Of a stretch of 64,000 bases of DNA, positions 2,681 to 64,000 are shown piece by piece. The stretch lies in the IMG/VR virus record IMGVR_UViG_3300039008_000120, positions 1-64,000 of that record. The stretch is one strand, 5' to 3'. Position 1 is the first letter of the stretch. Each line of letters begins with the position of its first letter. The notes beneath the pieces were generated by a model, which saw nothing but the letters and a program-made list of their open reading frames with translations, was not told where the DNA came from and searched no databases. The DNA is from a virus. Made by a program: the position numbers and the translations under genes.

Positions 2681-2682
2681 CA

Positions 2683-3021: not shown

Positions 3022-3025
3022 TTTT

Positions 3026-4051
3026 TTATACTCCCCGGTGTTGTGCTACATGATAACAATTTTCCTTAAGCAAAATTCCATCCTAATTCTATTGAAATAT
3101 TATATTCCTATTTTCATATATACAATATGGTCTCTAATCTATATGTTCATAATCATCTATACCAACTAATGTTTTTTTATCAGTACTATTTGATTTTATA
3201 TATCTGTTAAATCCATTATACCATTGTGTATCAACAGATAATCTAGTGCGATAAAATATATACTGTAAACTGGGACTATTATACATATTACACATTAAAT
3301 GACTAAATCCACAGTCTCCACCAATATATACATTACATAATTGTGTTGCAATGTCAACTATATCACTCTATTTATAATTATCATCTAATATATTTATCTT
3401 TTTATCAGTCACGGTTTGTATATCTGTTAAATCTGATTGATAATTATCTTTTTTGATAATATAAAATTCCTTTACTGTGGCAGGGGAGCTATTAATAATA
3501 TTAATAATCATATCATTATCAAAATTACGTTCAATGTGATATAATTTACCGCTCACCGGCAAAATCATACAATTGGTCTTACTACCTTCATATATATTAT
3601 TATATTGGGGTAACAATGGAACACATGGAAACATATTTTCTTTTAATGTCTAATTATGTACCCGATAAAACATGTTCACTCTCTAATTATGAAATCTAGG
3701 CCATAGTTGACTAACATTATAATCATTATATAAATTATTTTTAATATCAATTTTATCAGGATTATAAACATGTGGTGCATATAACAATAAATCGTCAATA
3801 TCAACTAAATTATATCTTACATCATTTTGATATATAAAATATAAATTATTCCATTTAAATTTATCTGGATATAATTTAATTAACTTTCATTTAATATTAT
3901 ATAGTAGTGTTGTTAAAATGCACTAATCGCCTAGTCTCATATATGTAAAAAAATAAGTACTAGTTGCAATCAAATAGTACTTATCGTTTTGTTCTATGAA
4001 CCTACACTTTTCAACATCTGTTAAATTGATATTGTCAAGTAATTTATCCAT
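3026..4051 (-). pseudogene. paralogue of 4414..5496, with 7 in-frame TAG and one in-frame TGA (readthrough gene or decaying copy)
   Basis: One frame runs from the ATG at 4051 to TAA at 3026-3028 and includes track ORF 3368..3634. TAG at 3923, 3683, 3650, 3368, 3134, 3089 and 3083. TGA at 3887-3889. Aligns to 4414..5496 across KLYPDKF/CKYPDRF and GGDCGFSH/SGDCGLTH. Confidence 0.5.
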
Positions 4052-12102: not shown

Positions 12103-13956
12103 TTAAATACCAAACATAGCACCCAAAGCACGAGACATTTTACTATCACCATTATTTTTCCCGGCACTTATTTGTTGTAATTGTCTCAATTGTAAATCTA
12201 AACCAGTATGATTAATATCGTTTGCAATTATATATTCTTTTACTACTCTATTTTTTAATGAATCTTCAACCTCTCTTTGAACATTGGTTGCAGTTTGATT
12301 ATGTTTATTTTTATTTTGTTTCTAATATGTTTTAAGAAACCTAAGTATTTTTCGTGAACTCTTATGTTTTGTTTGTGCTTGTGCTAAGATCTCAACAGTG
12401 AAAATACATATTGCAGTTGCCATTAATAGATCATCATGTTCTAAACCAACAGGTTTCCCCCTTCGTTTAATTACAAATTTCATTGCCTCATCAACTAAGT
12501 CTTCTGGTAATGTTTTATGTTTATATAATAAATTTGTTGATAATGTTATTAATGCTTTTTTACGTGTTGAATCAGTTGTTACAAAACCTAGCTTATTGGG
12601 TTTACCATCGTTATCAATGTCAAATTCATATGTATCTGTTTTCTTTACATACCGTATATTTGGTAATAATAAATGTGATAAATCAGATTCTTCAAATTTT
12701 TTAATTAAATAAAAACCCCTATTTCGTTCAATCATTATTTTTGCCCACTGATCAGTCTTAATATTTTTATAATATTTAGACAACTCAAGTAAATTATCAA
12801 AAATATTAAGTCTGGTTAAGCATGTGGCCTCTATACGAGATTGTGTTAAATTCTATACTGTTATTGCATTATAATGTGAACCCTCTTCCTGAACATCAGC
12901 AGATATTAAATAATCATCAGTTTTTGTTCGTTTATAATACACCTTAACGTGATCAAGCATTGTATCAATTTCTTTTTGTTGATCAATTAACATTAATTTT
13001 GTATCTTGAAAATATGTATCATACGGTAGAATCCACTGCATATCAAGCTCTGTTTTAATTGCTTTTTTATCATAATTAAGTAATTTACACTGCTCATCAT
13101 ACTAATCTTGATCACGATATGGTATTGTATCCCATGCTCCCTCAATTAGACGAAATCCAGACCCCTTAAATCCTTTTTTACGAACTGATTGGATTTGATT
13201 ATAAAACCATGAACCATATAAATTAGGTGTAGATAATACTATCATCTTACCATTTGTTGCAGATAGTGTGAATAATGAAGCCTTAAATATCTGTTCAACT
13301 CCATTTAGATAATCTGCTTCATCTAGTATAAGCCATGATGCTGACTGTGAACGACCAGATTGCTTTCCACTTGTCTGAGCAATAATTTTACTTGAATTTC
13401 TCTTATTACCTAAAACAAATTCTTTTTCATTTCTTTTAAGCTCTGATCTTCTTAAAAACCACGGAAGAGAATCATATTGAAACTTAAATTCACTAAGTGT
13501 CTCAATGGAATCTTTTTCGGTTTTAGAATATAATAATACTGTCTTGTTATTGTTAAATGTTAAAAACTATAATGCACACGCTAAGCTTGTCGTAGTGAAT
13601 CCAATTTGCCGTGATTTTGTACTGATAACTTTATCATCGTTAAATATGGCAGTTGCTAATTCAATCTGAATATCATACATTACAAATTTAACCATATCAC
13701 CCAGACATCTATTTTTTAATATTTCTGGCATAGTGTCTGGGTTATCAAACTTGTTCTTAACATATATATATTCATTTATAAAGTATAGCCAAGACTCTCT
13801 ACATTTTTTACGCTCTTCTTTAATTGTCTCTAATGTAGCATCACCTGTTATAAGTCTTCTTAACTATATTTTATCAACCTCATTAAGTTTACCTTGATCA
13901 TTTCTCACTTTTAATTTCTTTATTAAAGCTAATGTTTTTTTATCAAACTTTACCAT
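12103..13956 (-). CDS. terminase large subunit (617 aa, 5 in-frame TAG)
   Basis: One frame runs from the ATG at 13956 to TAA at 12103-05 and absorbs track ORFs 12853..13041 and 12322..12783. TAG at 13864, 13567, 13102, 12853 and 12322. Walker A-like KSRQIGFTTT, Walker B WLILDEADY, nuclease-half LEHDDLLMA. Confidence 0.8.
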
Positions 13957-14547: not shown

Positions 14548-14955
14548 ATGGAAAAAACGTATTTGATAATTTTTGATGATGATTATATGGTATCCACATC
14601 AGAAATCACAGACAATGAGATTAAAGGTGTTAAAGATGGTATAAATGAAATAGTAGAAATTGGTACACCATTAAAAAAACTGAACAGACATGGTGATTGG
14701 GTTGATATACCAATTATAAATGATATTGTAATAAACGATGATACACTTAAAATAACAATCAATGGAAAATCCGGTTCAGGTAAAACAACACTTGCACATG
14801 TCATAATGAATGCCTTGTCAAAATATGACACTGAAATAACTATACATAACGAAGCTGAAATTCGTTATGATGAAATACCAAAAATACTAAATGATGCACC
14901 AAATATACTTAAAGGTAAATCAATTGATATTTATGATGCACAGTTACAACGATAA
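14548..14955 (+). CDS. P-loop NTPase-like protein
   Basis: 135-aa track ORF. RBS AAGGAG. Walker A GKSGSGKTT. Confidence 0.6.
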   Translation: MEKTYLIIFDDDYMVSTSEITDNEIKGVKDGINEIVEIGTPLKKLNRHGDWVDIPIINDIVINDDTLKITINGKSGSGKTTLAHVIMNALSKYDTEITIHNEAEIRYDEIPKILNDAPNILKGKSIDIYDAQLQR

Positions 14956-15028: not shown

Positions 15029-15265
15029 ATGGTGGAATATGATATCGAAATTGAAAAATATATGAAAGAAATAAAAGCAGAATTAAAAACGGATAAACAG
15101 GGTTATGATTTATATTTATTAATCGTTAACACTTTAACTCAACACCCAGAATATAAAGAATGGAAAAGATGGGGGAGCATTGATTCAAGGGAGGTTGGTC
15201 ATCTCGACTTAAACCAAGATGAATTTAACAATTTATGCTCTAATCCTAAATTTAATCAACTTTAG
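15029..15265 (+). CDS. hypothetical protein
   Basis: Track ORF 15017..15265 trimmed to its first ATG. Preceded by a 20-codon ORF (14980..15042) that has the better RBS. Confidence 0.45.
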   Translation: MVEYDIEIEKYMKEIKAELKTDKQGYDLYLLIVNTLTQHPEYKEWKRWGSIDSREVGHLDLNQDEFNNLCSNPKFNQL

Positions 15266-15310
15266 AATTAATAAACTAACACACAATAAACATGGGCTGT
15301 TGAGGTAATA

Positions 15311-17208: not shown

Positions 17209-18711
17209 TTATATATTAATGTTTATTTTAATATTTGATTCACCACCTGATAGCTTAGTTACCTTTGTATTTGATGGTGAATATTCAAGCTTATAATTAT
17301 TTATATTTTCTTCTTCCTATTTGCCAGCCTTTTTATAATTAATAGTTAGTTTTTTAATTGACGGAGTTTCATTGATATCACAAGGAGTTTTGAATATAAA
17401 TGCAAAATCAATAAATTGTTTATTTGACATATCATAATTAGTAAAACCCTCTCTTAATGTGGCACGTAATGACTGGATGCCTAATCCAGTTGCACTATCT
17501 GCTTGTAAGTCACTTAAAATCTAAGTACACCATTTGTTTGTATACTAAGTATTCCCTTTGTCGAAACTTACTGCCCAGTTTATGAATGTATGTGCCGGTA
17601 TCTCAGCATCCACTATAACAGATTCAATCATCTTGCAATTTTCAAGCTTAATTTGGTTTGGTTTAGTTTTTATTACACATGATTTATTACATGTATATTC
17701 TCCAGTTTCAGAAAAAAAACCATTTTTATAACCCCCACTCGATATCAAATTATTAACATCTTGAACTTGATTTCGCCTAGATTCTAACTCAAATATTAAT
17801 CCAACCGATAAAACATTATTATCATCAAAGTATGGAACATATACCTCATCATTATTAATAGAACCCAATGATAATGTTTTTAATAAATTCCCAAGACTAT
17901 TATAATATTTTATAGTTCGATTGTCAAAATCACACAATATTAACATTTTTTCATTTCGAGGGCATTTCTATTTATAAACCATATTATTATCTGGGTAATC
18001 TGCACCACCAAAACCCTACGTACTATTAGTCTTGCTTATACGCAATACACCAATATTATGTTCTGTACTAGTTGCTTTAATGTTAAATGATACCTTCCCT
18101 GATGATACACCTGTGCTAGGTGGGCAATACATACTTAAAAATTTACTAGCAACAGCACCATTAAATGCACACCTTAAGTTTGAGTGTTGATCTAATTCGA
18201 TTCCATTTGTATTTTTACTGCTCGAATATGTGGTATCAAAATATGAGTGTTGATCTAATGCTGGATTAACAACTTTCTTTAATTGTATTTTATCATTATC
18301 CGCATCAAATATATTATCTGGTGTATCAAAATCACTAAGGGTGCTACTATTATAATTTAATACATTATTATATTGTGTCGTATTTGGCACTTCTTTACGC
18401 ATAGTTACAAATCTAATTAAATTAGGATCTGCATTATGTGAAATCTCTTTTATATCATTGTTATTAAAATTTAAACACTCAACTTGTTTTACATATCTAT
18501 CTGTTGTAGGTGTTGATATTGTTACCTTATTCTATTGTATTGGCTCAATTGCATCCAAGACGTAATATTCATTTACAACTTTTGCCCATTTTCCAACATC
18601 AGTTTCTTTAAATCCAATTGCACCATTTAGTTCTGTAACGTTTGCATATTCAAACGCATGAGGTTTGTGAATATCTTTTCCACCTAGATCACTATGACGT
18701 ATTGTATTCAT
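17209..18711 (-). CDS. tail fibre or tail protein (500 aa, 6 in-frame TAG)
   Basis: One frame from the ATG at 18711 to TAA at 17209-11 joins track ORFs 18016..18402 and 17545..17946. TAG at 18532, 18016, 17968, 17545, 17521 and 17317. Confidence 0.65.
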
Positions 18712-18730
18712 TTTATATGACCCATATGTT

Positions 18731-18760
18731 AAAAAAGTAGGTCTTTCAACCTACTTTTTT
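18731..18760. terminator. A-run/T-run flanked hairpin terminator
   Basis: AAAAAAGTAGG-8 nt-CCTACTTTTTT between two tail-fibre genes. Confidence 0.6.
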
Positions 18761-18854
18761 TTATTAGAATACTTATGCGATTAGTTTTTTTCCTGACTGA
18801 TCTACTATAAACTCACCTGAGTCTGTAATTATATACTTCTTATTCTCTTGCGGG

Positions 18855-20543
18855 TTAAAGAGACACCGCATATGCAACTGATAGCTTAACAACAGGCTCA
18901 CGAACTGTGCTACCAGATACATATACTTGGACAATATCACCTTCAGCTAAGGCAATATTTAAGTCATCTTTATGACCCCCATTTGTATTTGTTATTGTTA
19001 ATTTACCAAGTGAAATTCTCTCTCCATTTTTAAATATATGAATATCACTTGTACCTGTAACATTCGCACCTAAGTGAGCTGTGATGCCAGTTACACACAT
19101 ATCTTTAGATACTCGGATTGATGATGCGTTTGTTAATATATCACCACCAATTTTAAGGTATTTACTATTTACCATACCTTTCCTTGAATATATGTATGTT
19201 TCTCTGGATGACAACCATTTATTACGTGTGGTGTCTTTTCCATACACTGTACCATCAATCAATTTAATATCATTGACAGTCATCCCAAAATTTTCAATTG
19301 CAGTACTGTTTGCTGATATTTCATCCGCATTCTTTTTAACTTCAGCATCAAGTAACTCTCTTGCACTAAATGCTGTGGTTGCACTATCCATATAGTTAGT
19401 ACCGGAATGTGCCTTAAAAGTACCATCTGCATTTAAATTTAATGCAGATTCAATTGCATCAATTTCGGCTTGTGTATTCCCTGCACCAATCGCATTTGGT
19501 GTATAGCCAAATTCTATATCATCTACATCAACTTTTCGTGCAACATCATGTTTACCAAGTATATAAAACTGATATCCTGCCTATCTATCACCCTCATATA
19601 CTGGGATTGTTGTTCCCGGTAACAGTTCATTTTCAGGTTTACCATCAAGATCTGGGCGACGTGTTAAAACCTACGGCTTTGATGCATCACCAACTTCAGT
19701 TACATCATATACACCGTTTTGTTTTTTATCTGCCTGTCCAGCTAATAATATAGTTGATGTTGCTGTTATTGTATGTGAATCTATTGATACCAATTTTCCA
19801 TTTGCATTAGCTGTTAATTTTGATGCATTATCATCTGCAACTGGGGTATATGTACACGCAGGTAAAGGATCAGTTGTTGCACATGATACATGTGCCTTCG
19901 GGGATACACCTTGCATCATTGTTAAAATCTATGATTTTCGAGCAACGGAATTCATTGTTTTAGGATCAGTTGTAGTTGTGACTTCGTTGTCACCCATACT
20001 AAGATCACCGGTCATTGTGTCACCGGCTTTATTAACTTTTTTATTTAAATCATCAGCAACAGTTGTTTTTAAAGTTTCTAATTTGGTGTCAACCGCTTTC
20101 AATTCAGCATCTAATAATGTACTATCTTCTTTAAGTGAACCTGACGCATTAAGATAATTTGATGTTGTTCTTGCTTTATATGAACCATCATCTTCTAAAC
20201 CACTACCTGTTTCAATCGCATCAATCTCTGCCTGAAGTTCAGTATCTTTTTGTTCAAATGCAGTGCGTAACTCAGCATCCTTATCATCTATATACTTTTT
20301 GGATGCTCTCTTGATCTAATCAATACCATCTGAAGCACTAAGATCATCTGTTCCATCATTAACCACAATTGAACCAGCGGTAATTAATGTCTTAAGATCA
20401 CCTTGTAGTGCTGTGCTTAGTTCATCAGATGTAAATTCACCTGATAAAATATCACCACTAGCACCATCGGGCATATCCTACCCTAAACTCTCAACAAATA
20501 ACACGTCTCCCGTCTTATTTATTAAATTAATAATCTATTCCAT
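18855..20543 (-). CDS. tail fibre protein A (562 aa, 6 in-frame TAG)
   Basis: One frame from the ATG at 20543 to TAA at 18855-57 joins track ORFs 19671..19919 and 18855..19391. TAG at 20535, 20478, 20316, 19929, 19671 and 19581. Contains NGVYDVTEVGDASKP*VLTRRPD, a common tail-fibre motif. Confidence 0.75.
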
Positions 20544-22102: not shown

Positions 22103-22723
22103 ATGAATGTTAATATTGAATCTATACGACAAAAAATAAATGAGATAACTGAAAAAATTAATAATGCAACATCTCAAGATGAACGTGATGAGTTGTTCCG
22201 TAAACGTAAATTTTAGTTAAACTCATTACATACTAAAAAACATAAAACTCGACTTGCAGAAATACAACGTTGTGCTAAAAATGCAAAACCTGAACCAGTT
22301 GAACCAAAAACACCTATTAAGGTTGTAATTAAAGAGGTTCCTGTTGAAATCATTAAAGAGGTTCCTGTTGAGGTTCCTGTTGAGGTTCCTGTTGAAAAAG
22401 AAATTTTAGTTGCAACAGATTCATCGGGTATTCCAGATATAATACATACTGATGAATTTATAGCAATACTGAAACAAATTAGAGAAAATTATATTAACAC
22501 CCAAACAAATCTAAAAGTTGGTGATATTGTTACAACCGCAGATAATACCAAAGTAAAAATAAAAGAATTTATCATTGATGAAAAAAGCGTTTTTAATAAA
22601 AATGGTGGAATTTTTGCTAAGGTTAAAAAAATAATGAACAATAAAAATGAAAGTAAACGATTTTTTGGTAAAGATCCAAGAGGGATCCAAGTAACTTTAT
22701 TAAACAAGGTTGAATCAAAATGA
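22103..22723 (+). CDS. hypothetical head-module protein with EVPV repeats (206 aa, 1 in-frame TAG)
   Basis: ATG at 22103 with a GGAG RBS. TAG at 22214-16. The TGA stop overlaps the next ATG (ATGA). Confidence 0.55.
22334..22393 (+). repeat. GAGGTTCCTGTT 12-nt coding repeat (4 copies, 3 in tandem)
   Basis: Copies at 22334, 22358, 22370 and 22382, encoding EVPV units. Confidence 0.85.
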
Positions 22724-24177
22724 CAAATAAAATAAATTTTTTAGATATTTTGCATAATCACGATAAAAAAGAATCAACATCTAGTGCAGATTTTGAACAT
22801 AATGCTCTGTTAAATAATGTAAAATATAAAGAAACTGATACACATATGTAGATTTATAATTTCCCGGGGAGTTTTGGTGACACCCAAAATAAAAATAACA
22901 GAGTATATGATTAGTCAACATTAAAACAAGCAACCACGTAGTTCCTTGATATTAAGGATTCAAACCCCTATTTTACATACATTTTCGATGGACATAGGGA
23001 TGATGATAGCTATGAAAATATTATAGGACGGATAGTAAATCTACACCCTGATGAAAGCACTAAGTGCATTTTAGTTGATCTTAAACTTAACAAAGGTTCA
23101 AAATCTTACAAAACAATCGAAAATATTATCAAAGATAAGGATCCTATCGGAATATCAATGAGAATAATTTCACCAGACACATTAGTTATGTCAAAAGAAG
23201 AGATTAGTCAAATAAATGAAAGTATATTATGGTTAGAAAATGATAACCCTAGTCTTTCAAAATTAATGTCTAATGACGATGAGATTGAATATGTTGTTGG
23301 AGAAGCATTTATATGGAGATTTGATCTAACATAGTTTCCTAGTTTTAACCGATCGTTTGTTGGTGAATTAGGTAAAACAAAAAACGAATCAGCCATTTCA
23401 TTTACAAAAACAATAGATTCATGTGGTTTGTTTGCTAAAAATGATAAGTGTATAACCGACTCTTGTAAGTTTAAACATACAATTAAAAGCTTTTTAGATA
23501 TTATCAATAATAGTAAAGATGAATCAATTACACTAATAAATGAACATCCCACATTATACGATGACATGCTAAAATTTGCATATATGAATTTATCAGAATT
23601 TAACTTTGATGAAATAAATTCAGAAAAATATTTAAGAGAAAAATTATCTGATTTTGAAATATCAAGCGGTGACAAAGATGATTAGATAAAAACCATCAAT
23701 GATATATGTGGTAAAAATAACATATTATCATATGTTACATCAAATAATTTAATTGATGTTGATAAATATGTTAAATTGGTTAATACTACTTTAACTAAGC
23801 TCATTAACGTTGATGAGATTTTTTATCAAATGGTAAGCACTAATTACTTACACTAGTTAATAGTCTCAACATTAATATTAGACAATAAAGTTAATGTAAA
23901 AATAAAAAATATTGACAATTTAAAAACCTTATTACAAGATACTGCTGATATAGAAAAAGATACCAACATTGATATTTTAGTAAAATTTCTAAATGATATG
24001 GATAAAACTGAAATCAATGTATATGATTTTACTAATATGATATTTACTTATATATATGGATACTTTGTTAGGTATACTGATGAAATACCACCAATCACAA
24101 TTCTAAATGAATCATTTAAAAGATTTTATAAACCAAATACAAAAAAACTATTTAAACACTCTTTTGCCAAAAAATAA
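22720..24177 (+). CDS. prohead protease-like protein (T4 gp21-like N-terminal half; 485 aa, 6 in-frame TAG)
   Basis: One frame from 22720 to TAA at 24175-77. TAG at 22849, 22912, 22939, 23332, 23683 and 23854. NKNNRVYD / FDGH / FDLT*FPSF resemble my recollection of gp21 NRNKRLYP / LNHP / VDAVWGPSA. Lies directly upstream of the scaffold and capsid genes. Confidence 0.5.
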
Positions 24178-26108: not shown

Positions 26109-27236
26109 ATGAAAAAACCGATGATTGATATTAGTAAGATTGGATTAGACAATAAAGAATCATTAGAAGTTGCAGGGTTCACTTCTAAAGCTAAAGAAAA
26201 GTATCAATTAGATGCTCATAAAAGTGATACTCTAAATTTAATGTATTCAAACATTTATCGTCAATTTAAAGTATTTAAGGAATCCAATGCTGGACAGGTT
26301 TCCAGCGATATTGAACCATTTAGAAATATTGCGATTGTTGCTACAACTAAATTCTTCACTCAAAATATTTTAAATAAATTGGTATCCATGCAGACAACAG
26401 ATAGTCCATATGGTTTAATTACATATGTTGATTTTCAGTATGCTGATGATCATACACCTGATAATATAAAAGCTGGGGATTCTATAGTAAAAAGATCAAA
26501 AACATATGGAAATCACGACACTGAACAAACAAAATCAAGAAGAATTAAAACAAGCGTAACAAACAAGCCTATTACTGCTGGTGTGAGAACAATTGAAGCG
26601 AGTTATACATTAGAATCTTGGTTGGCTATGGCATCTATTAAAGGACAAAAAGATGCCAAAAACTTTTTAGATAAAACATATCTCGAAGTAATTGCATCTA
26701 AATTAAGGGATGAAGCAGAATTTGCTACAATGGATGCACTTTATTCTGCATGTTTACCTCAGCATATTGTACCATTTAGTGTTGATGGTACTGATTGTGA
26801 TGCAAGAGATTGTGATGCTAGAAAATTCCTAGATAGCATCGAAGAGGCTGGGCAGAGAGTGTACGATACACACAAAGTATAGCCTAACACAATTGTAGTT
26901 GGTTCAGACGCAATGAAAATCATTCGCCGTGGTGAAGTGAAGATTGTTAATAAAAAAGGTTCTGATGGTTTACCATCATCTGTTGCTCGAAATTATCAGG
27001 GTGTAATGGATGATAGATATTCAATACTATATGACCCAGAGCTTTCGGGAGCATTAATGACTTGGAAAGACTCTAATTCAACGTTCGGAGCATCCGCCGT
27101 ATATACAAGTGTGGTGCCTCTTGCTGTAACTCCACCTATAACAGAGAAAGACTTAAGCACTTACCGTGTAGTTTATACAGTTGACAGTGTTGACGTAGTT
27201 CATCCAGAGTTAATTGCACGAGTAGATATAGTTTAA
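26109..27236 (+). CDS. major capsid protein (375 aa, 1 in-frame TAG)
   Basis: Track ORFs 26109..26882 and 26913..27236 share a frame and are joined by TAG at 26880-82. Follows the protease and scaffold genes, and a strong terminator follows it. Confidence 0.65.
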
Positions 27237-31459: not shown

Positions 31460-33418
31460 TTAAACTTTAAATTTTGATATAATGTTTTTAAAATTGGAAA
31501 TACAATTAACATCAAGTTTTTCTATAATTTGAACCAACTTGCTAAAATCATCAGATATAGATTTATTAACCTCATCGATCGTGGTTATATTATTTGACAT
31601 ATTATTTATATCTACCATCATTTTTTTAAGATTTGAAAAAATTAACTCAATTCCACCCGAAACATCTGTCACATTTTTAGACATTTCATCACTTGAAATT
31701 GATTGTTCTTCGGTTGATGAGGCAACTGTGTTCATAACATCATTTACTTTATTCATATCAGTATTCACAGATGAAAGACCAGATTTTGATATTGATGTTT
31801 GTTCTTGAACATGTGATATTTTCTGTTTAATATCAACAGTTGCATTCGCTGTTTGTTTGGATAGTTCCTTTATTTCATTTGCAACAACAGCAAAACCCTT
31901 TCCAGCTTCACCTGCTCTTGCTGATTCTATCTGTGCATTTAATGATAATAAATTGGTTTGATCTGCTATATCAGAAATTAGCTCTATTATAGTATTTATA
32001 TCTAATGCTGACTGGTCTAAGCTATCAACAACTGTAAAGTTATCATTTAACTTTTTAATAGTTTCATCTATCATACCTTTGACACAATCCGCATTTTCAG
32101 CAATTTCATTTACTGTATATGACATCTCTTCTATACCAGACACTATAGTAGAAATGTTCCCAGATGATTCATCCGCTGATTGTAATATCTGTTTACAATT
32201 ATTATCAACAGAGTTACTAGTTGTATCAATATTTTGGATATTCTCAGTATTTTTATTTAATTCTAACTGTGATTCATTTGATAAATGAATAATTTCATTA
32301 AAATTATTAGATAAGTCATCATTTGCAATTTTTATATCAGTAATAATTGTATGAAGCGACTCGAAAAAAATATTAAACCAATGAATCAAATTATCCAATT
32401 CATCACCTGAGTTATTTTGTGGTAACCTAACTCTCAAATCACCATCACCTGTAGCAATATCTTTAATATTACTTTTAAGGTTTAAAATTGGTTTTAGTAT
32501 TTTATGATCAAAAATAAAAGTTACAATTACCAATAAAATAACTAATCCAATAAAACTAATTATACATCCAGCAATATTTAAATGTTTAATTTCACTAAAA
32601 AAAACATTTTCATCAACCACGACACCAAGTGACCATGATTTGATACCATAATTAAATAATATTGGTGTGAATGTATAAAACGAGTTTATTTTGCTTTGAC
32701 TTGATGTCATTTGCCAATTAAACGAGTTTTCACGTTGAATATTTTCTGTTATGTTAATAACATCATAGAACTCATTTACATTTCGATTTACTATATGCTT
32801 TTGTGGATGCCCAACAATATATCCATTATTATTTGATATAATAATATAACCACTATTAAATGGTTTAATGGTTTTTGCTATATTAACAAACTCTTGTGTT
32901 AAAATATCAATTTCAATATAACCAATATGTTTTTTATTTTTTTTAATTGAATATGTAATTGTAAATATTAATTCATCTGCATATGTTTTATATGGATCAG
33001 AAATTGCAAATCCTTCTATATTATATTTGATTTTATTTATATGCTTATTTTCTTTACTGAAAATAATTTTATTGTTAATCTCATATGCGTTTATATTATA
33101 ATTATTTGTTTTTATTCGAATACCAATAATATCAGTATTAACTAATTGATATTTTAACTCCTTCTTAATATTTGATACACCAACTATTTGTGATATCTTT
33201 ATACTTGTATTGGTGATCTGATTAATATATAATGACATTTTTCTATAGATTGATTTAGAATATGCTTCTGAACTTTTTTGTAACGCATACATACTTTTAT
33301 CATATATTATGTCTGATGCAATATGATTTGCAACTGATATTATTGCCACACATACCAATGTTATAACTATACTTATTGGTATAAGTAATTTTAATTTTAA
33401 ACTTTCAGAATATTTCAT
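31460..33418 (-). CDS. methyl-accepting chemotaxis protein (two TM segments, Cache-like sensor, HAMP, MA domain)
   Basis: 652-aa track ORF. TM segments at about aa 10-35 and 285-310. HAMP-like segment. Signalling hairpin [40 protein letters not shown]. Confidence 0.85.
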
Positions 33419-35169: not shown

Positions 35170-36453
35170 TCAATCTAAATCTCCACCATCTTCAGCGAAG
35201 AATAGTATAATTTTACCGTCTCGTGCATTACTATCTGTTGTACATTTTACTAGAACTGTATCGTTCTCCTTAAAATCAACATTCAAATCATTAACCACAA
35301 CACCTGTTGCAGATGAAATTGTTATTATACTCAAATCATTTGGTTCGTTGTTTTTTCTTACATGAAACTTTAAATTAGATGTAGATCTAATTGTTGCACT
35401 AGCACCAACTAAAACTGAATTTTTGGGTATTTTCAACCCCCCAAGATTTGACGGAATATTCCCTATTGTACGTAAATACATATTTCTACATATACCAGTT
35501 TTACCAAGCTCAAATTGAAAGCGATTTCCTAGCTATTTCTCACGTTCACTGTCTTTTATATAGTATGTATTATTAATAATTTTGAAATTATTTAAAACAT
35601 TATCACATGATTTTAATTTTTTATCAATCAGTTCGAGTACTTTGGATAAAGATTCTCCGACCTTTGAACCAATTGTACTAAGGTCTGCAATTGTTGAAAT
35701 TTCGGTGGTTTTGTGTTTTCCGGGTTTACCATTTAAATGTGATCCAAAATCAATATCACCGATTTTCCCCCATGATGTAGTTGTGGTGGTACCATCACTA
35801 TCAATGCCATGCACATACTGAGCTTGTTTACCGTCACCATCGTCATCAATTACAACACCATAGTTATCTTTAACTGGGTTATCTGCTGACAATACAAAGT
35901 CAGTGCCATCATATTCATAAACTTTATTATCGGTTATATTAATAATTCTATCAGCAATTTTAACATCACCAATTGATACCCACTTACCATCAATTACTTT
36001 GAAATATGATTTTGATGTAGAATTGTAATATATACTACCTTCTTTACCAACATCCGGTTCAGTTGCAGATATATTTAAAAAATATTTAATTGGTGTTAAC
36101 TAAACACTAGGTGAACCAAAACTTGGGGCACCGAATATATTGTCCCAGTGAACCTTTGATTCACCTGCTTTCCCCAGTTGTTTTTTGCTATAATAATGTC
36201 GCTCAAGATCTAAGACATTTTGTCGCCTTAAATACTTCAGTGCATCTTCAATAGATAGGTCATCATCACCATCATTTACAATAATTGAACCGGCAGTAAT
36301 TAATGTCTTAAGATCTTCTGATGAACATAGCTCACCATAGTCAAATTGATCACTGGTTAGTATATTCTCTGATCCCTCCAATACCAAACCAATATCTGGT
36401 ATTTCCAAATCACCCGGATTTTGATTTTTTAAATATATAGTCTAATCTGCCAT
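35170..36453 (-). CDS. tail fibre protein B (427 aa, 3 in-frame TAG)
   Basis: One frame from the ATG at 36453 to TGA at 35170-72 joins track ORFs 36100..36408, 35533..35892 and 35170..35481. TAG at 36442, 36100 and 35533. Shares the N-terminal DLKTLITAGSI(I/V)VNDG module with fibre A. Confidence 0.7.
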
Positions 36454-36471
36454 AGTTAATTACCTCATTAT

Positions 36472-37092
36472 TTAAATTAACTGTAATGTTAATATTGGTT
36501 TATCTAATCCATCTTTTGAATCGATATAACATGAAATATTATCATTTTTATTAAACATTATATCTTTATCAAAACCGGTTGCATATTTAGCATTATCTAA
36601 ACTTATTGTTAAAATAACATTATTATTATTTTTTATTTCAACAACCCCAGTGTTGTGCTTGCTTGTTCTTAAAATCTACCGTTTTAGCGTTTTTTTACGC
36701 AAAACAGTATAACCATGTAAATTAGTTGGTATTCTAGTTAACTAATGCATATATCGTTTTTTTACGTGATTAGTATTAATATAAAAATGTATTTCACTTA
36801 TATCAACTACTGTACTATCTAGTGGTATACTTGCTTTTCCTAGTTTTTCCTAATTATTAATATCTTGGAAATTTTCATCAGTTAACCGATATAAACCATT
36901 ATTCGTTTCAATATCATTATAAACTGAAACAATCATACCACGATATGTATATACATACCCATCATTTGCTTCCCAGATACTTGTTTTACACAAATCTGAT
37001 TTATATTCAACTCGACTCCTAGCATCAAGTGGTGCTGATTTTTGAGGTTCGAAGTTAGCGGAAAAACTACTAGTTCCTTTTTCTCTTCCCAT
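36472..37092 (-). CDS. tail or baseplate-region hypothetical protein (206 aa, 3 in-frame TAG)
   Basis: ATG at 37092 with a GAGGT RBS. Track ORF 36850..37092 continues through TAG at 36850, 36742 and 36676 to TAA at 36472-74. Confidence 0.55.
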
Positions 37093-37113
37093 CTTACACT
37101 AACCTCTTTTTTA

Positions 37114-38004
37114 TTAATTTGTGTACCATCTTAGTGACCTATAACCGGTTTTACTACCATTATGTATATACCTAACATAATCAATAGTATTACCATGTAT
37201 TTCATGCTGAGTTGAAGTTTTTGTGAACGTTCTTAAACTATTTTCTTTTGTTCCTGATATCTATTCCTACTTCCCCGAAACAGTATTATAAAATTGAATA
37301 CCTGTTATATTTTTCCATAGTACCGGAAAATCAACTGTTTGTTTCTTGTCAGTTTCTTCAATTTCAACCACACACTCTACATATGTACTTGACATTGATG
37401 CAAGTTTTTGTTTAGAAAGCATCGATATATGTTTTGATGTTGCAAAAAATGGATATACACCGATAATCTCACAGCTACTATAATTAGTATACCCACTATT
37501 TAATTTTTTTTTGTAAGGTCTACCTTTATTTGTCAGTGGCTGTTCACCACCTTCAAACAAAACTCTACATTTCTATTGTGTAGAACCACGTATAACTTCA
37601 TATGAAATTGTTTGTGTATTTGATAGTTGATTTGATATAATTTTATCTGGAACTGTTTTTCCTAAAAAATTGTATTCTTTTGGTAAACCAGAACGAAACC
37701 CACTAGTACCATATGCTGGATTAATATATCCCCGGTTAAAATTTGCAATAATATCAAGATTCGGTATAATTTCACCAATTTCTCGAAACCCACTTACAGA
37801 GCTTCGAAGTGTTACGCTTGGGTTACCTAACCTAGGATAACGTTCTGGATATAATAACATATCCTACATTTCAGTCATTGTATTCTCATCGAAGGTTTGA
37901 CCTATATTTATACCCCCAACTGCAATTTCAACCGGATCATCATTTGAATATAAAACATCACATGATGTTGAAGTTGAATCATATTTATTGTTATATTTTA
38001 ACAT
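37114..38004 (-). CDS. tail or baseplate-region hypothetical protein (5 in-frame TAG; in-frame TGA at 37201-03)
   Basis: ATG at 38004. The frame joins track ORFs 37573..37860 and 37267..37560 through TAG at 37864, 37573, 37267, 37261 and 37237. It then meets TGA at 37201 but stays open 28 more codons to TAA at 37114-16, just before the next RBS. The true end is either 37201 or 37114. Confidence 0.5.
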
Positions 38005-38117: not shown

Positions 38118-39305
38118 TCAATTAAAGATATATTTAATTGATTTAAAACCTTCTATGTGCGTAGGTAATATATATTGATCGAACATGTTATATATTATCT
38201 CCTTTTCTATTTTTTTACCCTTCACTTCGGATACTCTAAGCATATTCCTATTTACTAATTTATCCTTTTCTACTAATAACGCAACAGAGTGAACATTTGC
38301 ATTATTCGTTTTACCAATCCCAATTAGACTTTTTCTAGCCTTTCTGGTTAACGAAACATTTGCAATTGCTATATTATTATAGCCATTTTTATATAATTTT
38401 GTTACAAGTTGTTGTGTTTCTTGTAATAAATTAATATTTTTTTGTTCGCTACACCACGCAAAAGCTTTATGATATAGCTCATTATATGTTTCATTTATGT
38501 CGTTTTCATTATTATCCAGATAAAGGGAGACACGGATATCATCCCACGATACAACAATGTCTATTTTTTTAGAAAGATGATTTTTACAAACAAAATCTTT
38601 ACCAGAACCAGAACAACCACTAATTATATATAGGTTTCGTTTATATGATGGCTTATCATCAACTTTTTTAATATTATTAAAATCTAATTTTAAAAATTCT
38701 TTTAATAAATCAACATCATCTTTACCTGACCTACTTGAATTTGATCTAATTTGTCCCCTTGCATCAACTGATGCAAGTAATGTATATAATTTTATTAAAT
38801 CATGTCTATAATTTAATAATGCATATACTTTATTAATATCATTAACCTGATAATATAATGTATGTGATTGTATAATCAGCATCATACCAATAATATCTTC
38901 ATCTGATACACTAAATACAGACTTAATTATTTTATAATTATTTAACATAATTTGCATCGAACGATAATCATGTTGATTAAATGTTCTTTTTTTCTTTTCT
39001 ATATCATCTTGATAACAAGTTGGCTTACCAATATCATGAAATAATACAATGATACATAATAATACTATTTCATGTTCGTCTAATTTTACATTTTCTAATA
39101 CACTTTTTATATGTGAATATGACATACATGTATGTGTCCACACGTTCCCCTCTAAGTGATATTGATGGGGAATATATGAAAAACCATGTTCACAATTTAA
39201 CATTTCAAAAACGTAATCATTAAAATTGTGAATAAATTTTTCAAATGTATCAGATATTATATAATCAATATTATTTTCCATTTCCGATTTCCAATACTTT
39301 TTCAA
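38118..39305 (-). CDS. HD-domain phosphohydrolase fused to a P-loop kinase (putative RNA/tRNA end-repair enzyme)
   Basis: 395-aa track ORF (TTG start; an ATG alternative lies at 39281). H..GNVWTHT and LFHDIGKP in the N-terminal half, ISGCSGSGKDF Walker A in the C-terminal half. Confidence 0.55.
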   Translation of the reverse strand: MKKYWKSEMENNIDYIISDTFEKFIHNFNDYVFEMLNCEHGFSYIPHQYHLEGNVWTHTCMSYSHIKSVLENVKLDEHEIVLLCIIVLFHDIGKPTCYQDDIEKKKRTFNQHDYRSMQIMLNNYKIIKSVFSVSDEDIIGMMLIIQSHTLYYQVNDINKVYALLNYRHDLIKLYTLLASVDARGQIRSNSSRSGKDDVDLLKEFLKLDFNNIKKVDDKPSYKRNLYIISGCSGSGKDFVCKNHLSKKIDIVVSWDDIRVSLYLDNNENDINETYNELYHKAFAWCSEQKNINLLQETQQLVTKLYKNGYNNIAIANVSLTRKARKSLIGIGKTNNANVHSVALLVEKDKLVNRNMLRVSEVKGKKIEKEIIYNMFDQYILPTHIEGFKSIKYIFN

Positions 39306-42765: not shown

Positions 42766-44058
42766 TTAAATATAATCTGTCAATGAAATTCTTTTATTAA
42801 ATTCTTCAACTCTCCAATTCAACACTCTATTTGAGATTTCAATACCATTTTTACCATTAAATAAATCAGATATATGATTTGGTACATTAAGCATATTTAC
42901 AATCTCAGCGTTTTTAATATGCTTTATTATTATACCATCAATACCACTTAAACCTTTACTAACTTTAATACTATTTACAACACTCAATACATCACTTAAC
43001 GTTTTTCTTTTTTGTAAGTGATGTATAATTTTTAAAATCTGCACTGGTTTCATTTTATAAATTTCATTGATAGTTAAATGAAATTTAATAGTATCTTCTA
43101 TAGTTTTCTTAATATTGTTGGGTAATTTTAGGCGTTTACTTATATATGGCACTAGAAATAGCCCTGTTCTATCATGATCACAATGATATGGTAGCTGTGA
43201 ATCATTAGTAAAAATTTTACCGATATCATGATATAATGCACCCCATAGTGCAGGAATTGAATCAGTTGACATTTTAGTTATATCAACTACATTCATCACA
43301 TGATCATATACATCAAGGTAATGAATGTGTGTCAACCCAACTAAGTGTGAAATAACAGGAAACCATATATCTAAATTTTCTGTTTCTTTTAAAACATTAA
43401 AAAATATACTAGGTGAATTAGACGATTTAAATGTTTTATCAACTTCAATATATATTCGTTCACCTGAAAGCCCCTCGGTTTGTACCGACAAGTCTTTCAT
43501 TAAATTTAATGTTTTTTTATCAACATCAAAATTAAAACGGGAAGCTAACCGTCCTGTTCGAAATATCCGTAATGGATCATCTGCATATGCATCACTAGTA
43601 TGACACAAAACTTTAGAACGAATAGACTCCATGCCTTTATATGGATCAATTATATTATTTAAATCACTAATTGGTATTGCCATAGAGTTAATTGTCAAAT
43701 CTCGACGCTTTAGATCGTCTTCAATTGTGATGTTTTTTCCATATACAACATCAAAATCAGTATGACCATTACCAGTTGACCGCTCTTGACGTGCAACTGC
43801 TAATTCTATTTTTTCAATACCACTTGATGATTCTATTTCTAATAAAAATACTGGAAATGATGACCCAATTAGTTTAAATCTTTCATTTAGTTTATGTAGT
43901 TGTGGTTCTGTTATTTTTTCAATACACAAATCAATATCATTTGATTTGATATTTAATAAATGATCTCTACATATCCCACCAACGAGATAAACTTGTGATA
44001 GCATATCTAAATCACTGAACAATGCAATAAGATTATCATATAAAATTTTATCTATCAT
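42766..44058 (-). CDS. cca: CCA-adding enzyme / poly(A) polymerase-family tRNA nucleotidyltransferase with an HD domain
   Basis: 430-aa track ORF. GGICRDHLL, DIDL, RRDLTINSMA and a C-terminal YHDIGK. Confidence 0.8.
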   Translation of the reverse strand: MIDKILYDNLIALFSDLDMLSQVYLVGGICRDHLLNIKSNDIDLCIEKITEPQLHKLNERFKLIGSSFPVFLLEIESSSGIEKIELAVARQERSTGNGHTDFDVVYGKNITIEDDLKRRDLTINSMAIPISDLNNIIDPYKGMESIRSKVLCHTSDAYADDPLRIFRTGRLASRFNFDVDKKTLNLMKDLSVQTEGLSGERIYIEVDKTFKSSNSPSIFFNVLKETENLDIWFPVISHLVGLTHIHYLDVYDHVMNVVDITKMSTDSIPALWGALYHDIGKIFTNDSQLPYHCDHDRTGLFLVPYISKRLKLPNNIKKTIEDTIKFHLTINEIYKMKPVQILKIIHHLQKRKTLSDVLSVVNSIKVSKGLSGIDGIIIKHIKNAEIVNMLNVPNHISDLFNGKNGIEISNRVLNWRVEEFNKRISLTDYI

Positions 44059-50778: not shown

Positions 50779-52659
50779 TTACCATATTACATTTAACTTA
50801 AAATCATAAGAATATATACTATAATTATGACTTTTAGATACAAGATTAATTTTCCTCGATGAACGTTTACGTTTAAATTTATTTGAATCATGATTTTTAT
50901 TAGTTATATTTGTTAATACATTATTTCCTGATTCAAATAGAGATAGAATATCTTCATCTTCAACCGGTTCAATATTATTTTCTAAGTCTTCGTCGGTGAT
51001 ATCCTCTAATATATCAGACATTACATCATTCGGAAATAGTTTATTAAGAATAAATTCATCTTTAATGTTCATTCCCAACATTTGTTCTAACTGGGTAAAC
51101 ATTGTAACAAATTTTGACGACTTATCTAAATCTGTTTCTTTTCGTTCACTCATTGGAACAAATTCAGGTATATTAACATTTAAATATTTAATGTCTAAAT
51201 CTTTATAATTAACACCTAACTACTTTTCCATCTAAAACGTTAATATATTATTTAACATTACTTGATAATGGCGAATTTTCATTGAATAAACATTATCATG
51301 TAGTGCCAACATGCTATTATTCTGATATGTTTTGGCATTACTTGATTTTCTATAATGTAAAGGAATACCCATAGTATGATATACCTTATCCTACCAGTAA
51401 TCAATGTCATCCAGTAGTGGCTTGTATTCAGATTTTAATGTGTCTATTTTTAAATTTTCACCCTCAGTTGGAACAATCAAATTTGAATCTATGAGATTTT
51501 TTACAATATCAAAACTCATTTGATCTGTTGTTTCATCAAAATTCATTGCTGATTTCGATTTTACTAAATTTCGATATAACATAAGTGTGTTTGCAATGTC
51601 TTCATCTTCAATTTTTTCTAAATCCAATTTCCAAATGTGAGTTGTTTTAGATTTCGATAATCTCTCTATTAATAATGACAACTCTAACAGCTCGATAACT
51701 TTTAAATAATTTATAACTTTGTCAACTTGAGATTTTCCAATTACACCTTTTTCAGCAATGAAAAACATGTTCTCGGATTTTAATTCTGTACCATCTTCGA
51801 TTTTAAATATACTAATATTCTTATTGGTTATTTTTTTTAAATGATCATCTTCATCTATTGTTTTAAACATAGTGGTTGATGAATTACCTGATGATTCAAG
51901 TAAATCATTACTAATTTTTGTTGAATTTATTGTAGTGTTACCATTTGAAGTTTCCTTAAACACTACCTCATCAAGGCTATAAAAACTAACATCTGAATAT
52001 GTCTTAACGTCATCAAAATAAAAAATTCCACACCCATACCGCAAAATACTGTTTACTAAATTATACAATGAAAGTTTAATATTATTTCTCTTTAATAAAT
52101 TTCCAATCGCTAGTGATATTTCTTTGTGATGTGAATCAACTTTTTCAACGTTGTTGTTATAAATAAGCTGATCAACCTCTATATTTGGAACATTGATATC
52201 ATCGATAATATCAGTAGAATCGGATGTAGTACTATCGTTTATATATCTAGTATCTATTTTTTTCTCCAAAACTTTATACTCACCGAATAAATTAACCTCA
52301 ATCTTTCTTTTATTTGATGATGATGTATATATAATAGATGATGCTAACATATCTATTAAATATTCAATTTCTGGAAAACGATCTAAATATAAATTAACTC
52401 TATTAATTAATGATAATTTAGAATCAAAGCCACCATTAACTGTAACAATACCTAACCTATTAAATAAATCAGTGCTAACATTATTAATAAATTCATTCGA
52501 TTCATTTAACACATTATATGCACTACTTCGTGCAGTTGGTAACGACTTTGATATTAAATTATCAAGCTCCCCAGTTTTAACTAATTCTTTACCCTAAGAC
52601 ACCCCATTACTTTTTTTCTCAAAGTTAAGTGAATGTCGTTTTTTTGTAAAATTTATCAT
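50779..52659 (-). CDS. portal protein (626 aa, 4 in-frame TAG)
   Basis: One frame from the ATG at 52659 to the stop at 50779 joins track ORFs 51391..52512 and 50779..51153. TAG at 52594, 51391, 51232 and 51220. DMLASSIIYTS and DDIDYW*DKVYHTMGIPLHYR resemble T4 gp20 segments as I recall them. Acidic C-terminal tail. Confidence 0.7.
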
Positions 52660-56236: not shown

Positions 56237-56483
56237 CTGTTTTTACCTTAATATTAGATGTTACATCTTCTGATAATATAATATCTTTATTATCACTCAC
56301 TTTACATTCACATCCATTATTTAAATAATAATAACTATCACAGTTACTACATTTAAACAGTGTAACAATACTCCCATCTCCTTGTGAAAATATTGTTTTA
56401 CAATTATGACATACAACTACTTCAATATTATTATTTACTTCAATTTCTAACATTTTTTTACAATTGGGACACCTATCATTCAT
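56229..56483 (-). CDS. double zinc-ribbon protein
   Basis: 84-aa track ORF. CPNC..CHNC..CSNC..C.C. Confidence 0.5.
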   Translation of the reverse strand: MNDRCPNCKKMLEIEVNNNIEVVVCHNCKTIFSQGDGSIVTLFKCSNCDSYYYLNNGCECKVSDNKDIILSEDVTSNIKVKTDE

Positions 56484-57106
56484 ACTTTATCATATCCATT
56501 TTTAATATATTCTGATATTCGGTTTATATCTATATCATTTTTAACAATACTAAAATCAAAGTTTTTTGGTGGTTCTATATCTATAGATTTAAATAAATAT
56601 TCTAAACTAACTTTAGGATGTCTACAAATATCACCAATATTTAATACTACAAAATCATAATATTTTCCATTGTTAATTTTAGATAATGAACTAAAAATAT
56701 CAATATATGCTGTTTTAATTCTGTTCGTTGGATTTGATAAAAACGTGTTAACAGGATTGTTTTTAATATGTAAATTTTTTATTGTACTTACAATTTGACT
56801 AGGCCAAAATCTAGTAGTTATTATTGTATATACTTTATCAAAACCTGAAAATATTAATCTATTATACCAATCATCTAATCTAGGTAGATTGCTACCATGT
56901 GGGTAGCTTTGTCTGACTAAAAGCTTATCTATTTTTTCAGCAATAACCCAAGATCTAAATCCATTATCATCATACATAACATTTTGGAACTCTTGTGTAT
57001 GCTTATCGGTACCACGGATTTGTTTATCCGCTGATAATATAAATTTACTAACGGCTCGACAACCAGTACTTTCACCAGTACCATATACTAAGTATGCAGA
57101 TTTCAT
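56480..57106 (-). CDS. putative sulfotransferase-like protein (weak call)
   Basis: 208-aa track ORF, ATGA-coupled to the APS kinase gene. The N-terminal YGTGESTGCRA loop and TRFWPSQIVS segment loosely resemble the 5'-PSB and 3'-PB motifs. Confidence 0.3.
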   Translation of the reverse strand: MKSAYLVYGTGESTGCRAVSKFILSADKQIRGTDKHTQEFQNVMYDDNGFRSWVIAEKIDKLLVRQSYPHGSNLPRLDDWYNRLIFSGFDKVYTIITTRFWPSQIVSTIKNLHIKNNPVNTFLSNPTNRIKTAYIDIFSSLSKINNGKYYDFVVLNIGDICRHPKVSLEYLFKSIDIEPPKNFDFSIVKNDIDINRISEYIKNGYDKV

Positions 57107-57642
57107 ATGATAAACCCTTTTTTATAATCAATAACACGATCTAAGCATAATTTTAAAACTATATATTGTAAACATGAATATATATCATGTAAACCTGTAT
57201 CAACTGTCAAATTTGGGTTAATTGGTTTTTCATATGGATCATTAACACCACTTTGATTAGTTGGATTTTTATATAACCCTTTTGTATCTCTTTGTCTTAA
57301 AATAGAAATATCACAGTGACAATAAATTTCATAAAAAATATTCCCACTTTTTTCAATTAATTTTCGATTATTTAATCTGGTTTCATTATATGGTGCAATA
57401 GATGCAATAATGGTATTAATATTATGTTTATTAAGATAGTTTCCAAGTATACCAAGAGAAGATACGTTGATATCTCGGTCTTTCTTACTAAAGCCAAGGT
57501 TTTTATTATATAGCTGACGATATGTATTACCATCAATTAATTCAATAACTGAATCTTTTTTTAAATAATTATATAACTCTCTTGATAAAGTTGTCTTACC
57601 GGAATCAGTTAAACCGGTAAACTAAATTGTATAGTTTTTCAT
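57103..57642 (-). CDS. cysC: adenylyl-sulfate (APS) kinase (179 aa, 1 in-frame TAG)
   Basis: ATG at 57642 (AAGGGTG RBS) to TGA at 57103-05; absent from the track because of TAG at 57622-24. TI*FTGLTDSGKTT, LIDGNTYRQ..LGFSKKDR, IASIAPY, RDTKGLYK and NDPYEKP follow CysC motif order. Confidence 0.8.
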
Positions 57643-63486: not shown

Positions 63487-64000
63487 ATGAGTTCACAAAT
63501 TGATTGTTACTTTGGAATTAGACCAACTGGTAATAAGCTTCACTTAGGTCACTTAATGACACTTTTTGATATGTTTGATTTTATAGTAACAAACATAAAT
63601 CACGTTAATAATATATATATTCTTTTAGCTGAAATCCATGCTCAAATATCAAAAATTTCAATAGAAAAAATTAAGTTAAATTCTAAAGATTTACATATTC
63701 AAATTTTAGAAGTATTTAATATATTTTTGAGAATGAGAAATATATCTCCTGAAAAAATTAAATATTTAAATAATAAAATTAAATTTATATATCAGTCTGA
63801 TTTTGAAACTCATGTTAATATCACATATACATATTTACCACTTGTAAACACAAATAAAGTATTAAAAAATCCAATTTTCAAAAACAATAATAACAACAGT
63901 GTCGGCTTTTTAATTTATCCAATTTTACAAACGTTTGATATTATATTATACTCACCAAACAGCAAAGATACTGATCTTTATGTTTTTGTGGGTGGTGATC
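63487..64000 (+). CDS. trpS: tryptophanyl-tRNA synthetase-like class Ic aaRS, 3' end outside the window
   Basis: ATG at 63487 with a GGAG RBS, open to the window end. GIRPTGNKLHLGH (HIGH), ILLAEIHA, ISPEK, FIYQSDFETH, IFK, SVGFLIYPILQTFDIILY and VFVGGD align in order and spacing with bacterial TrpRS: G.QPSG..TIGN, CIVDQHA, IDPEK, F.QS.VPEH, QFK, AGL..YP.LMAADILLY and VPVGEDQ. Confidence 0.7.
   Translation, partial: MSSQIDCYFGIRPTGNKLHLGHLMTLFDMFDFIVTNINHVNNIYILLAEIHAQISKISIEKIKLNSKDLHIQILEVFNIFLRMRNISPEKIKYLNNKIKFIYQSDFETHVNITYTYLPLVNTNKVLKNPIFKNNNNNSVGFLIYPILQTFDIILYSPNSKDTDLYVFVGGD

Follow-up and report, generated by a model that had tools for sequence, protein, structure and literature searches.

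We analyzed a 64,000-nucleotide stretch of viral DNA (positions 1 to 64,000 of IMG/VR virus record IMGVR_UViG_3300039008_000120; the whole stretch is called the window here) in which a gene resembling adenosine 5'-phosphosulfate (APS) kinase carries an in-frame TAG codon, and examined how that codon is read. Exact-protein matches assign the window to two longer contigs, a Logan contig of 160 kb and a JGI contig of 232,818 bp; the source is therefore a jumbo phage, ~233 kb long and AT-rich at 26% GC. DNA loci from this phage or from relatives in its clade are given L-numbers below, and public database proteins are given P-numbers. The gene and its codon lie as follows:

57103..57642, minus strand: APS-kinase-like gene of 179 codons, with one in-frame TAG at codon 7
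57622..57624, minus strand: the TAG codon, directly before the P-loop FTGLTDSGKT; very probably read as Trp

The first-pass annotation of this DNA had noted a TAG one residue before the P-loop of this CysC-like gene and had placed it at an "invariant" Trp. We confirmed the codon on the minus strand, where the open reading frame (ORF; 57642..57103) begins M-K-N-Y-T-I-TAG-F-T-G-L-T-D-S-G-K-T-T. The alignment to Pfam APS_kinase (PF01583) that the annotation had suggested scores 118 bits against a cutoff of 21.1 and joins protein residues 3-148 to profile positions 2-152 of 152, while the alignment to solved APS kinases spans residues 3-165. Between the TAG and the P-loop there is no ATG, GTG or TTG, and the ATG at 57642 has a Shine-Dalgarno-like AAGGGTG upstream, so read-through of the TAG is needed to make the P-loop strand.

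We then searched a library of 1.84 billion representative proteins with the ORF sequence that follows the TAG. Among the best 150 of 6181 matches, 127 had a recognizable P-loop, preceded by W in 93 (73%), F in 22 (17%), L in 5, Q in 4 (3%), and Y, M and V in 1 each. Trp therefore predominates in this column, as the annotation had held, but it is conserved and not invariant. The closest homolog among those 150 is 57% identical, has the same unusual GLTDSGKT loop and reads MDNFTI-W-FTGLTDSGKT, with W where the phage has TAG. At this position, W is found in PAPSS1 and F in 3cr8 among solved structures, and F (TTT) in the clade orthologs at L009 and L230. APS kinases have two motifs for catalysis and substrate, LDGD and ENxRR. 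In the window protein, IDGN and INVSS stand in their place, while both motifs are intact (LDGD, ENVRR) in the L009 ortholog; the window protein may act on another substrate, or be catalytically impaired or less active. A 208-aa gene without a Pfam match (56480-57106) overlaps the stop of the APS-kinase-like gene.

This codon is one of many in the window. Reading TAG as sense lengthens ORFs, and many long conserved genes close only then, including those for the terminase, the major head protein, the protease and the fibres. Of 83 gene models, 31 hold a total of 72 in-frame TAG codons and 52 are TAG-free; all 83 stop at TAA (71) or TGA (12). TAG is confined to part of the genes: it is richest in structural genes, which reach 6 TAG each, and missing from others, including a block at 38-50 kb, a tryptophanyl-tRNA synthetase (TrpRS) gene and a gene for a CCA-adding enzyme. 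Three of the phage genes recognized by PHROG, and the two terminase codons used below, are:

12103..13956, minus strand: terminase large subunit (phrog_2), with 5 TAG and 7 TGG
13567-13569 and 13102-13104, minus strand: terminase TAG codons on invariant-W columns of distant homologs, from alignments to 38 homologs
26109..27236, plus strand: major head protein (phrog_138), with 1 TAG, which stands opposite TGG in L008 and L009
60939..61709, minus strand: ClpP-like head maturation (prohead) protease (phrog_94), with 2 TAG

The amino acid read at TAG

We aligned orthologous genes of ten clade genomes at the DNA level and counted the codons opposite each TAG. Codons were tallied because database proteins pre-translate TAG as Q. 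The public proteins of this clade (P0001-P0009 and probably P0054) carry Q at every TAG, the gene-caller having used code 15; when P0002, P0008 and P0009 were checked in DNA, every mismatch to table 11 was a TAG written as Q. TAG stood opposite TAG in 288 pairs. The 563 sense codons opposite TAG included 193 TGG, 142 Tyr, 50 Phe, 25 Leu, 23 Asp, 23 His and 1 Gln. When the counts are scored with substitution profiles derived from these alignments, Trp fits best, followed by Tyr (-437 nats), Phe (-811), His (-1086) and Gln (-1328), and smaller genome sets gave tallies that agree with this result. This Codetta-style comparison over all TAG columns, which the first-pass annotation had put forward as a check, thus places Trp well ahead of Tyr, Phe, His and Gln. 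Single positions look much the same: four genomes have TAG and two have TGG at position 34 of a GT9-like protein, and the TAG in the ClpP domain of the protease is TGG in L010, TTT in L011 and I or L in solved ClpP structures. The sequence around the 72 TAG codons of the window shows no motif (at most 0.22 bits per position, equal to that around TGG).

TAG lies one mutation from both TGG and TAT/TAC, so a test on invariant columns was needed. We used 38 terminase homologs, with identities from 75% down to 22%. Two of the TAG columns of the window terminase are near-invariant W in the distant homologs, while close relatives alternate between W and a database "Q"; that Q is an artefact, as every one checked in DNA (in three relatives) is a TAG translated under code 15. 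We defined an invariant column as one in which at least 80% of 23 distant standard-code terminases share a residue, and read these columns in seven recoded phages. The three invariant-W columns retained in the clade (21 cells) hold 14 TAG, 6 TGG and 1 His. The four invariant-Y columns (28 cells) hold 24 Tyr and no TAG, and the two invariant-Q columns hold 14 Gln and no TAG. Each clade terminase has 9-13 TAG and TGG codons together, compared with 11-12 W in most of the distant homologs. The terminase is free of TGG in two relatives. One TGG-free terminase has 11 TAG, and the one at L230, on a 180 kb contig, has 9.

These data bear first on Gln, the meaning of TAG in genetic code 15, under which the Trp match in the APS-kinase-like gene would be coincidental. 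The literature we searched reports no other TAG reassignment for phages, and public protein databases do show Q at the TAG positions. Those Qs, however, are artefacts: every one checked in DNA is a TAG translated under code 15. Gln is also opposed by its single codon among the 563, by the invariant-Q terminase columns without TAG, and by the transfer RNA described below, which lacks the recognition elements of glutaminyl-tRNA synthetase (GlnRS). For practical purposes, we regard the Gln reading as excluded, with next to no probability left to it.

On raw counts, only Tyr competes seriously with Trp, having 142 of the 563 partners and, on a 276 kb clade contig taken alone, more partners than W (30 vs 12). 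The single mutation between TAG and TAT/TAC would also account for a TAG derived from a Tyr codon. It fails the invariant-column test, though, since TAG fills none of the 28 invariant-Y cells and 14 of the 21 invariant-W cells, the 276 kb contig included. Tyr also lies 437 nats behind Trp and occupies the APS-kinase column in just 1 of 127 homologs. We consider it very improbable that TAG means Tyr in this clade, also in view of the synthetase and tRNA described below.

We are therefore nearly certain, from comparison of sequences, that TAG encodes Trp in this phage and its relatives. The first-pass annotation had drawn Trp rather than Gln from one column, and its reading is upheld over hundreds of TAG columns as well as the invariant ones. 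TAG appears to be used interchangeably with TGG, mainly in structural and other non-early genes, with TAA and TGA kept as stops.

The phage synthetase and the suppressor tRNA

The strongest contextual clue to how TAG could be read as Trp lies at the right edge of the window, and the first-pass annotation had missed it:

63487..64000, plus strand: 5' part of the phage TrpRS gene, which has 338 codons in full and runs past the window end; no TAG and no TGG

The full gene (L001 8273-9289, minus strand) belongs to the PF00579 family. It matches the NCBIfam model TIGR00233 (trpS) at 79.6 bits, compared with 45-55 bits for the tyrS models. A profile of eight family members, run against the PDB, had TrpRS structures at all of ranks 1-16 (86.6 to 31.3 bits), ahead of the first tyrosyl-tRNA synthetase (TyrRS) at 30.8 bits. 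By these scores, the phage enzyme is closer to TrpRS than to TyrRS. The best match, at 86.6 bits over almost the full length, is the Thermotoga maritima enzyme (2g36). The HIGH (HLGH), GxDQ (GGDQ) and KMSKS motifs and four cysteines are invariant across the eight family members and shared with 2g36, whose aligned cysteines coordinate a [4Fe-4S] cluster within the domain that binds the anticodon. The match to 2g36 is nevertheless a distant one, and the phage enzyme itself is almost Trp-free. Against a genome collection, the TrpRS alignment found only cellular TrpRS, at 22-32% identity, and the nearest cellular enzymes are 24-32% identical.

The gene is found at the same position in six clade genomes, in the conserved order protease, 5'-3' exonuclease, small ORF, TrpRS, GT9-like, rIIA-like, rIIB, dUTPase and DNMK. 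In these six (the window phage and L013, L010, L011, L016 and L017 among the loci), no TrpRS gene contains TAG and five contain no TGG either. A synthetase gene without TAG, and usually without any Trp codon, can be made under the standard code of the host.

Single-protein scans of IMG/VR gave no clade match, and two clade members there, of 276 kb and 180 kb, were located only by family alignments. We walked outward from these two contigs with chimeric edge queries and so reached locus L267 and a cluster of 13 tRNAs. L267, on the 180 kb contig, contains a tRNA with a CUA anticodon (tRNA-CUA; 14643-14716; Rfam tRNA 59.4 bits). It is a class I tRNA with a 4-nt variable loop, an anticodon loop of CUCUAAA and an encoded CCA, and its acceptor and D positions are C1-G72, U2-A71, C3-G70, A10 and U73. 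It thus lacks nearly every GlnRS identity element of the textbook E. coli rules (U1-A72, G2, G3, G10, G73 and U38). A tRNA-CUA of clear Gln identity had been named by the first-pass annotation as grounds for abandoning Trp, and the clade tRNA-CUA is not of that kind. Lacking these elements and G73, and clustering with no isotype, it is an orphan tRNA, for which a dedicated enzyme is plausibly required.

The same 180 kb contig holds the tRNA-CUA at ~108.7 kb, the TrpRS (L017) at ~134-135 kb and the terminase of L230 described above, in which TAG stands at Trp columns. At its start, L267 shares synteny with the right flank of the window phage, and the equivalent tRNA site is predicted ~5 kb beyond the sequence of this phage that we examined, which comprises ~94 kb (the window, 10 kb to its left and 20 kb to its right). 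From this synteny, the window phage may carry the same tRNA-CUA. The 276 kb contig (IMGVR_UViG_3300021166_000052) has its 13-tRNA cluster at ~5-11 kb (L265 14104-20068), comprising tRNAs for Pro, Thr, Gly, Ile, Ala, Asp, Val, Phe, Tyr, Ser, Glu, His and Lys and running to the edge of the locus, and a lone tRNA-Leu(UAA) at L229 13262-13347. No tRNA was found within 10-20 kb of the TrpRS gene in the six genomes, and a generic amber-suppressor DNA pattern run over IMG/VR gave no clade contig among the matches listed.

One tRNA-like gene was seen in the window phage itself, ~8.7 kb left of window position 1 (L003/L004 800-974, plus strand), at 48% GC against a background of 27%. It has a 7-bp acceptor stem, a D-arm of the tRNA-Leu type (GCGGAATTGGTAGACGC), a long variable arm and a good T-arm. 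The anticodon arm is replaced by a structured insert of ~90 nt with a TTACG direct repeat on both sides. ARAGORN reports the gene as Val(tac) with an 86-nt intron at relaxed settings only, and its anticodon cannot be assigned.

The tRNA and the synthetase also bear on Tyr. The CUCUAAA anticodon loop is that of a Tyr-derived amber suppressor, and TyrRS models match the phage enzyme at 45-55 bits, as they might if the enzyme were TyrRS-like. On the other side, 16 TrpRS structures precede the first TyrRS (86.6 vs 30.8 bits), and the short variable loop of the tRNA-CUA is unlike that of bacterial tRNA-Tyr.

How Trp comes to be inserted at UAG is a separate matter, and we propose the following route. 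The phage would supply an amber-suppressor tRNA-CUA whose acceptor end (C1-G72, U73) fits neither the GlnRS of the host nor canonical TrpRS. Its own divergent, Thermotoga-type TrpRS with four conserved cysteines could be made under the standard code of the host, since its gene contains no TAG. That enzyme would charge the tRNA-CUA with Trp, as co-occurrence, conservation and the logic of the identity elements suggest. Once the pair is expressed, TAG-containing genes, the APS-kinase-like gene included, would become translatable, and the recoding may then work as a timing switch. We consider this TrpRS/tRNA-CUA mechanism probable.

An alternative is that TAG does mean Trp, while a host enzyme charges the suppressor or the suppressor tRNA itself comes from the host; the phage TrpRS would then serve the supply of Trp-tRNA or counter-defence. 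Many recoded phages do without a dedicated synthetase, the TrpRS and tRNA-CUA genes are 25 kb apart, and the accessible 94 kb of this phage contains no tRNA, all of which would fit such an arrangement. A phage TrpRS kept at a fixed position in all six genomes examined, and far from any cellular TrpRS, speaks against it. Moreover, the change of anticodon from CCA to CUA and the presence of U73 each remove identity elements of bacterial TrpRS (under E. coli and B. subtilis rules), so the TrpRS of the host is a poor candidate. We regard charging or supply by the host as unlikely.

It is also conceivable that no dedicated tRNA is involved and that the TAG codons reflect pseudogenes, A-to-I editing of mRNA (UAG to UIG), or low-level near-cognate read-through. 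Editing of UAG to UIG to give Trp occurs at the amber/W site of hepatitis delta virus, and the absence of a tRNA from the accessible sequence of this phage would be expected under this explanation. A genuine tRNA-CUA does exist in the clade, however, and essential genes such as those for the terminase and major head protein carry up to 11 TAG. Since the 72 TAG codons have no common context, site-directed editing is unlikely, and the conservation of TAG positions in essential genes (the 288 TAG-TAG pairs come from genomes only ~50% identical in protein) excludes pseudogenization. We give these explanations together a very slight probability, a little below that of Tyr.

Several observations weigh against Trp or against the proposed pair. 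All of the support is comparative sequence analysis, none of it experimental. Tyr is the second commonest sense partner of TAG, and amino-acid composition, in the sense of whether TGG and TAG together restore a normal Trp frequency, had no discriminating power. The synthetase scores well below the NCBIfam trusted/equivalog cutoff (79.6 vs 176.75 bits) and is also matched by TyrRS models; it is thus a divergent TrpRS relative and not filed as an equivalog. The tRNA-CUA has U73 in place of the G73 expected of bacterial tRNA-Trp, and its body clusters with no isotype in a panel of 335 tRNAs. Its gene and that of TrpRS are ~25 kb apart and do not form one module, and the one genome in which the suppressor is documented is that of a relative with 41% identity in TrpRS. 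Neither ARAGORN nor Rfam, the latter at both thresholds, found a tRNA of any kind in the window or in the 10 kb to its left and the 20 kb to its right, and relaxed ARAGORN and permissive Rfam settings returned only noise. Finally, the annotated loci showed no gene for a release factor.

With these points taken into account, UAG as Trp in this clade combined with a phage TrpRS/tRNA-CUA pair remains, in our judgment, a likely joint explanation of the data. On balance, we also lean toward seeing here a clade of AT-rich jumbo phages with a natural, phage-encoded orthogonal pair that reassigns UAG to Trp in part of their genes.

Other features of the window and its relatives

Further genes of the window that bear on the distribution of TAG, or on the handling of tRNA, are:

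22720..24177, plus strand: structural-module protein of 485 aa with 6 TAG; relatives show TAG, TGG, TAT, CAT or TTT
17209..20543, minus strand: two tail-fibre-like genes (phrog_30390) with 6 TAG each and just 3 and 1 TGG
35170..38004, minus strand: three structural (fibre-like) genes with 3, 3 and 4 TAG
50779..52659, minus strand: late-gene candidate of 626 aa with 4 TAG and no PHROG match
42766..44058, minus strand: CCA-adding tRNA nucleotidyltransferase (PF01743, PF12627, PF01966) with no TAG and 3 TGG

The predicted CCA-adding enzyme is evidence that the phage handles tRNA. Two genes have a TAG two codons ahead of their stop, at 2677-3081 (minus strand; TAG-TGT-TGA) and 15029-15271 (plus strand; TAG-AAT-TAA-TAA). 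These TAGs could be the true stops of early genes, backed up once suppression starts.

The window also encodes a methyl-accepting chemotaxis protein (31460-33418, minus strand; 652 aa, TAG-free) with dCache_1, HAMP and MCPsignal domains. As an auxiliary gene this is unusual, and it suggests that the host may be motile. A gene of the RNA-repair type (38118-39305, minus strand) appears to fuse an HD-like N-terminal region, recognized by eye and without a Pfam match, to an AAA_33 kinase domain; an RNA ligase (PF09414) was seen in a relative (L009 270-896). Beside a PfkB-like gene there is a strain polymorphism, where L014 (1192-1554) and L015 (1276-1638) carry a Cas12f1-like TNB (TnpB-type) ORF. 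The same spot on the 160 kb contig is occupied by a 441-aa gene (L013 11044-12369), and L012 has an ORF similar to the TnpB-type one. One relative has a LAGLIDADG intein in the large subunit of ribonucleotide reductase (L010 19039-21023; 1149 aa), a protein that is intein-free and 818-824 aa long in other clade members.

Close relatives outside the loci used here were sought in several collections. A megablast of 24 kb of the window against GenBank phages gave no match. By tblastn against the same set, the best terminase match was 27% identical and TrpRS was unmatched, and matches this remote mean that GenBank phages hold no fully readable relative. A chimeric edge query of the metagenome collection and an exact 40-mer of an NCBI-deposited relative, run against the genome collection, were both without a match. 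A sister lineage with the standard code, sought as a comparison of TrpRS presence or absence with TAG recoding, was not found.

Relation to known recoded genomes

The codes reported for phages in the literature we searched are TAG to Gln and TGA to Trp or Gly. A broad survey found only TAG to Gln and TGA to Trp in phages that differ from their hosts, and ascribed this to the susceptibility of host GlnRS and TrpRS. TrpRS genes accompany TGA-to-Trp recoding in Jade phages. A 2025 screen of 29 phage tRNA-CUAs assigned 28 to Gln and 1 to Ala, and also described a natural TrpRS:tRNA(UCA) pair for UGA. For UAG as Trp, we found only the Balanophoraceae plastid; the search was incomplete, and an earlier description elsewhere is possible.

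In several respects, the clade resembles code-15 phages (crAss-like, Lak, phAss-1 and others). These also have in-frame TAG in conserved, mostly structural genes while other genes avoid it, and they also keep TAA and TGA as stops and include members with a suppressor tRNA-CUA. The differences are the amino acid (Trp and not Gln), a tRNA-CUA without GlnRS elements, and the conserved phage TrpRS. The TGA-to-Trp module of Jade phages is likewise one in which a phage TrpRS is proposed to charge a stop suppressor and in which the synthetase gene can be read under the standard code. The codon there, however, is UGA. For a tRNA-Trp to read UGA is a near-cognate step, whereas the middle position of the anticodon has to change before UAG can be read. 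The tRNA, TrpRS and release-factor genes of the Jade module are adjacent, in contrast to the separated tRNA and TrpRS genes of this clade and its annotated loci without a visible release factor. The Balanophoraceae plastid (NCBI table 32) makes the same assignment, with TAG as Trp and both TAA and TGA kept for termination, and its genome, like that of the phage, has a strong AT bias, by which mutation from TGG to TAG is favored. The whole genome is recoded in the plastid, while in the virus only some genes are recoded and the synthetase is its own. In the phage literature searched, neither the Trp assignment nor an enabling TrpRS had been linked to UAG before.

There is a practical consequence for annotation. 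Gene-callers that detect TAG recoding write Gln at conserved Trp positions in these genomes, and alignments, structure predictions and profile models are corrupted as a result. If the proposal is true, the TrpRS:tRNA-CUA pair would also be a ready-made candidate orthogonal system for amber code expansion. The case for orthogonality is that the tRNA-CUA lacks identity elements for GlnRS and canonical TrpRS, and there is a parallel in the UGA-Trp pair recently engineered from phage metagenomes. For the biology of these phages, the known set of phage codes is extended by UAG to Trp. This assignment cannot be reached through the susceptibility of host GlnRS or TrpRS, which would explain why the clade has a synthetase of its own. 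If true, it would be a phage genetic code that is listed for no virus or bacterium.

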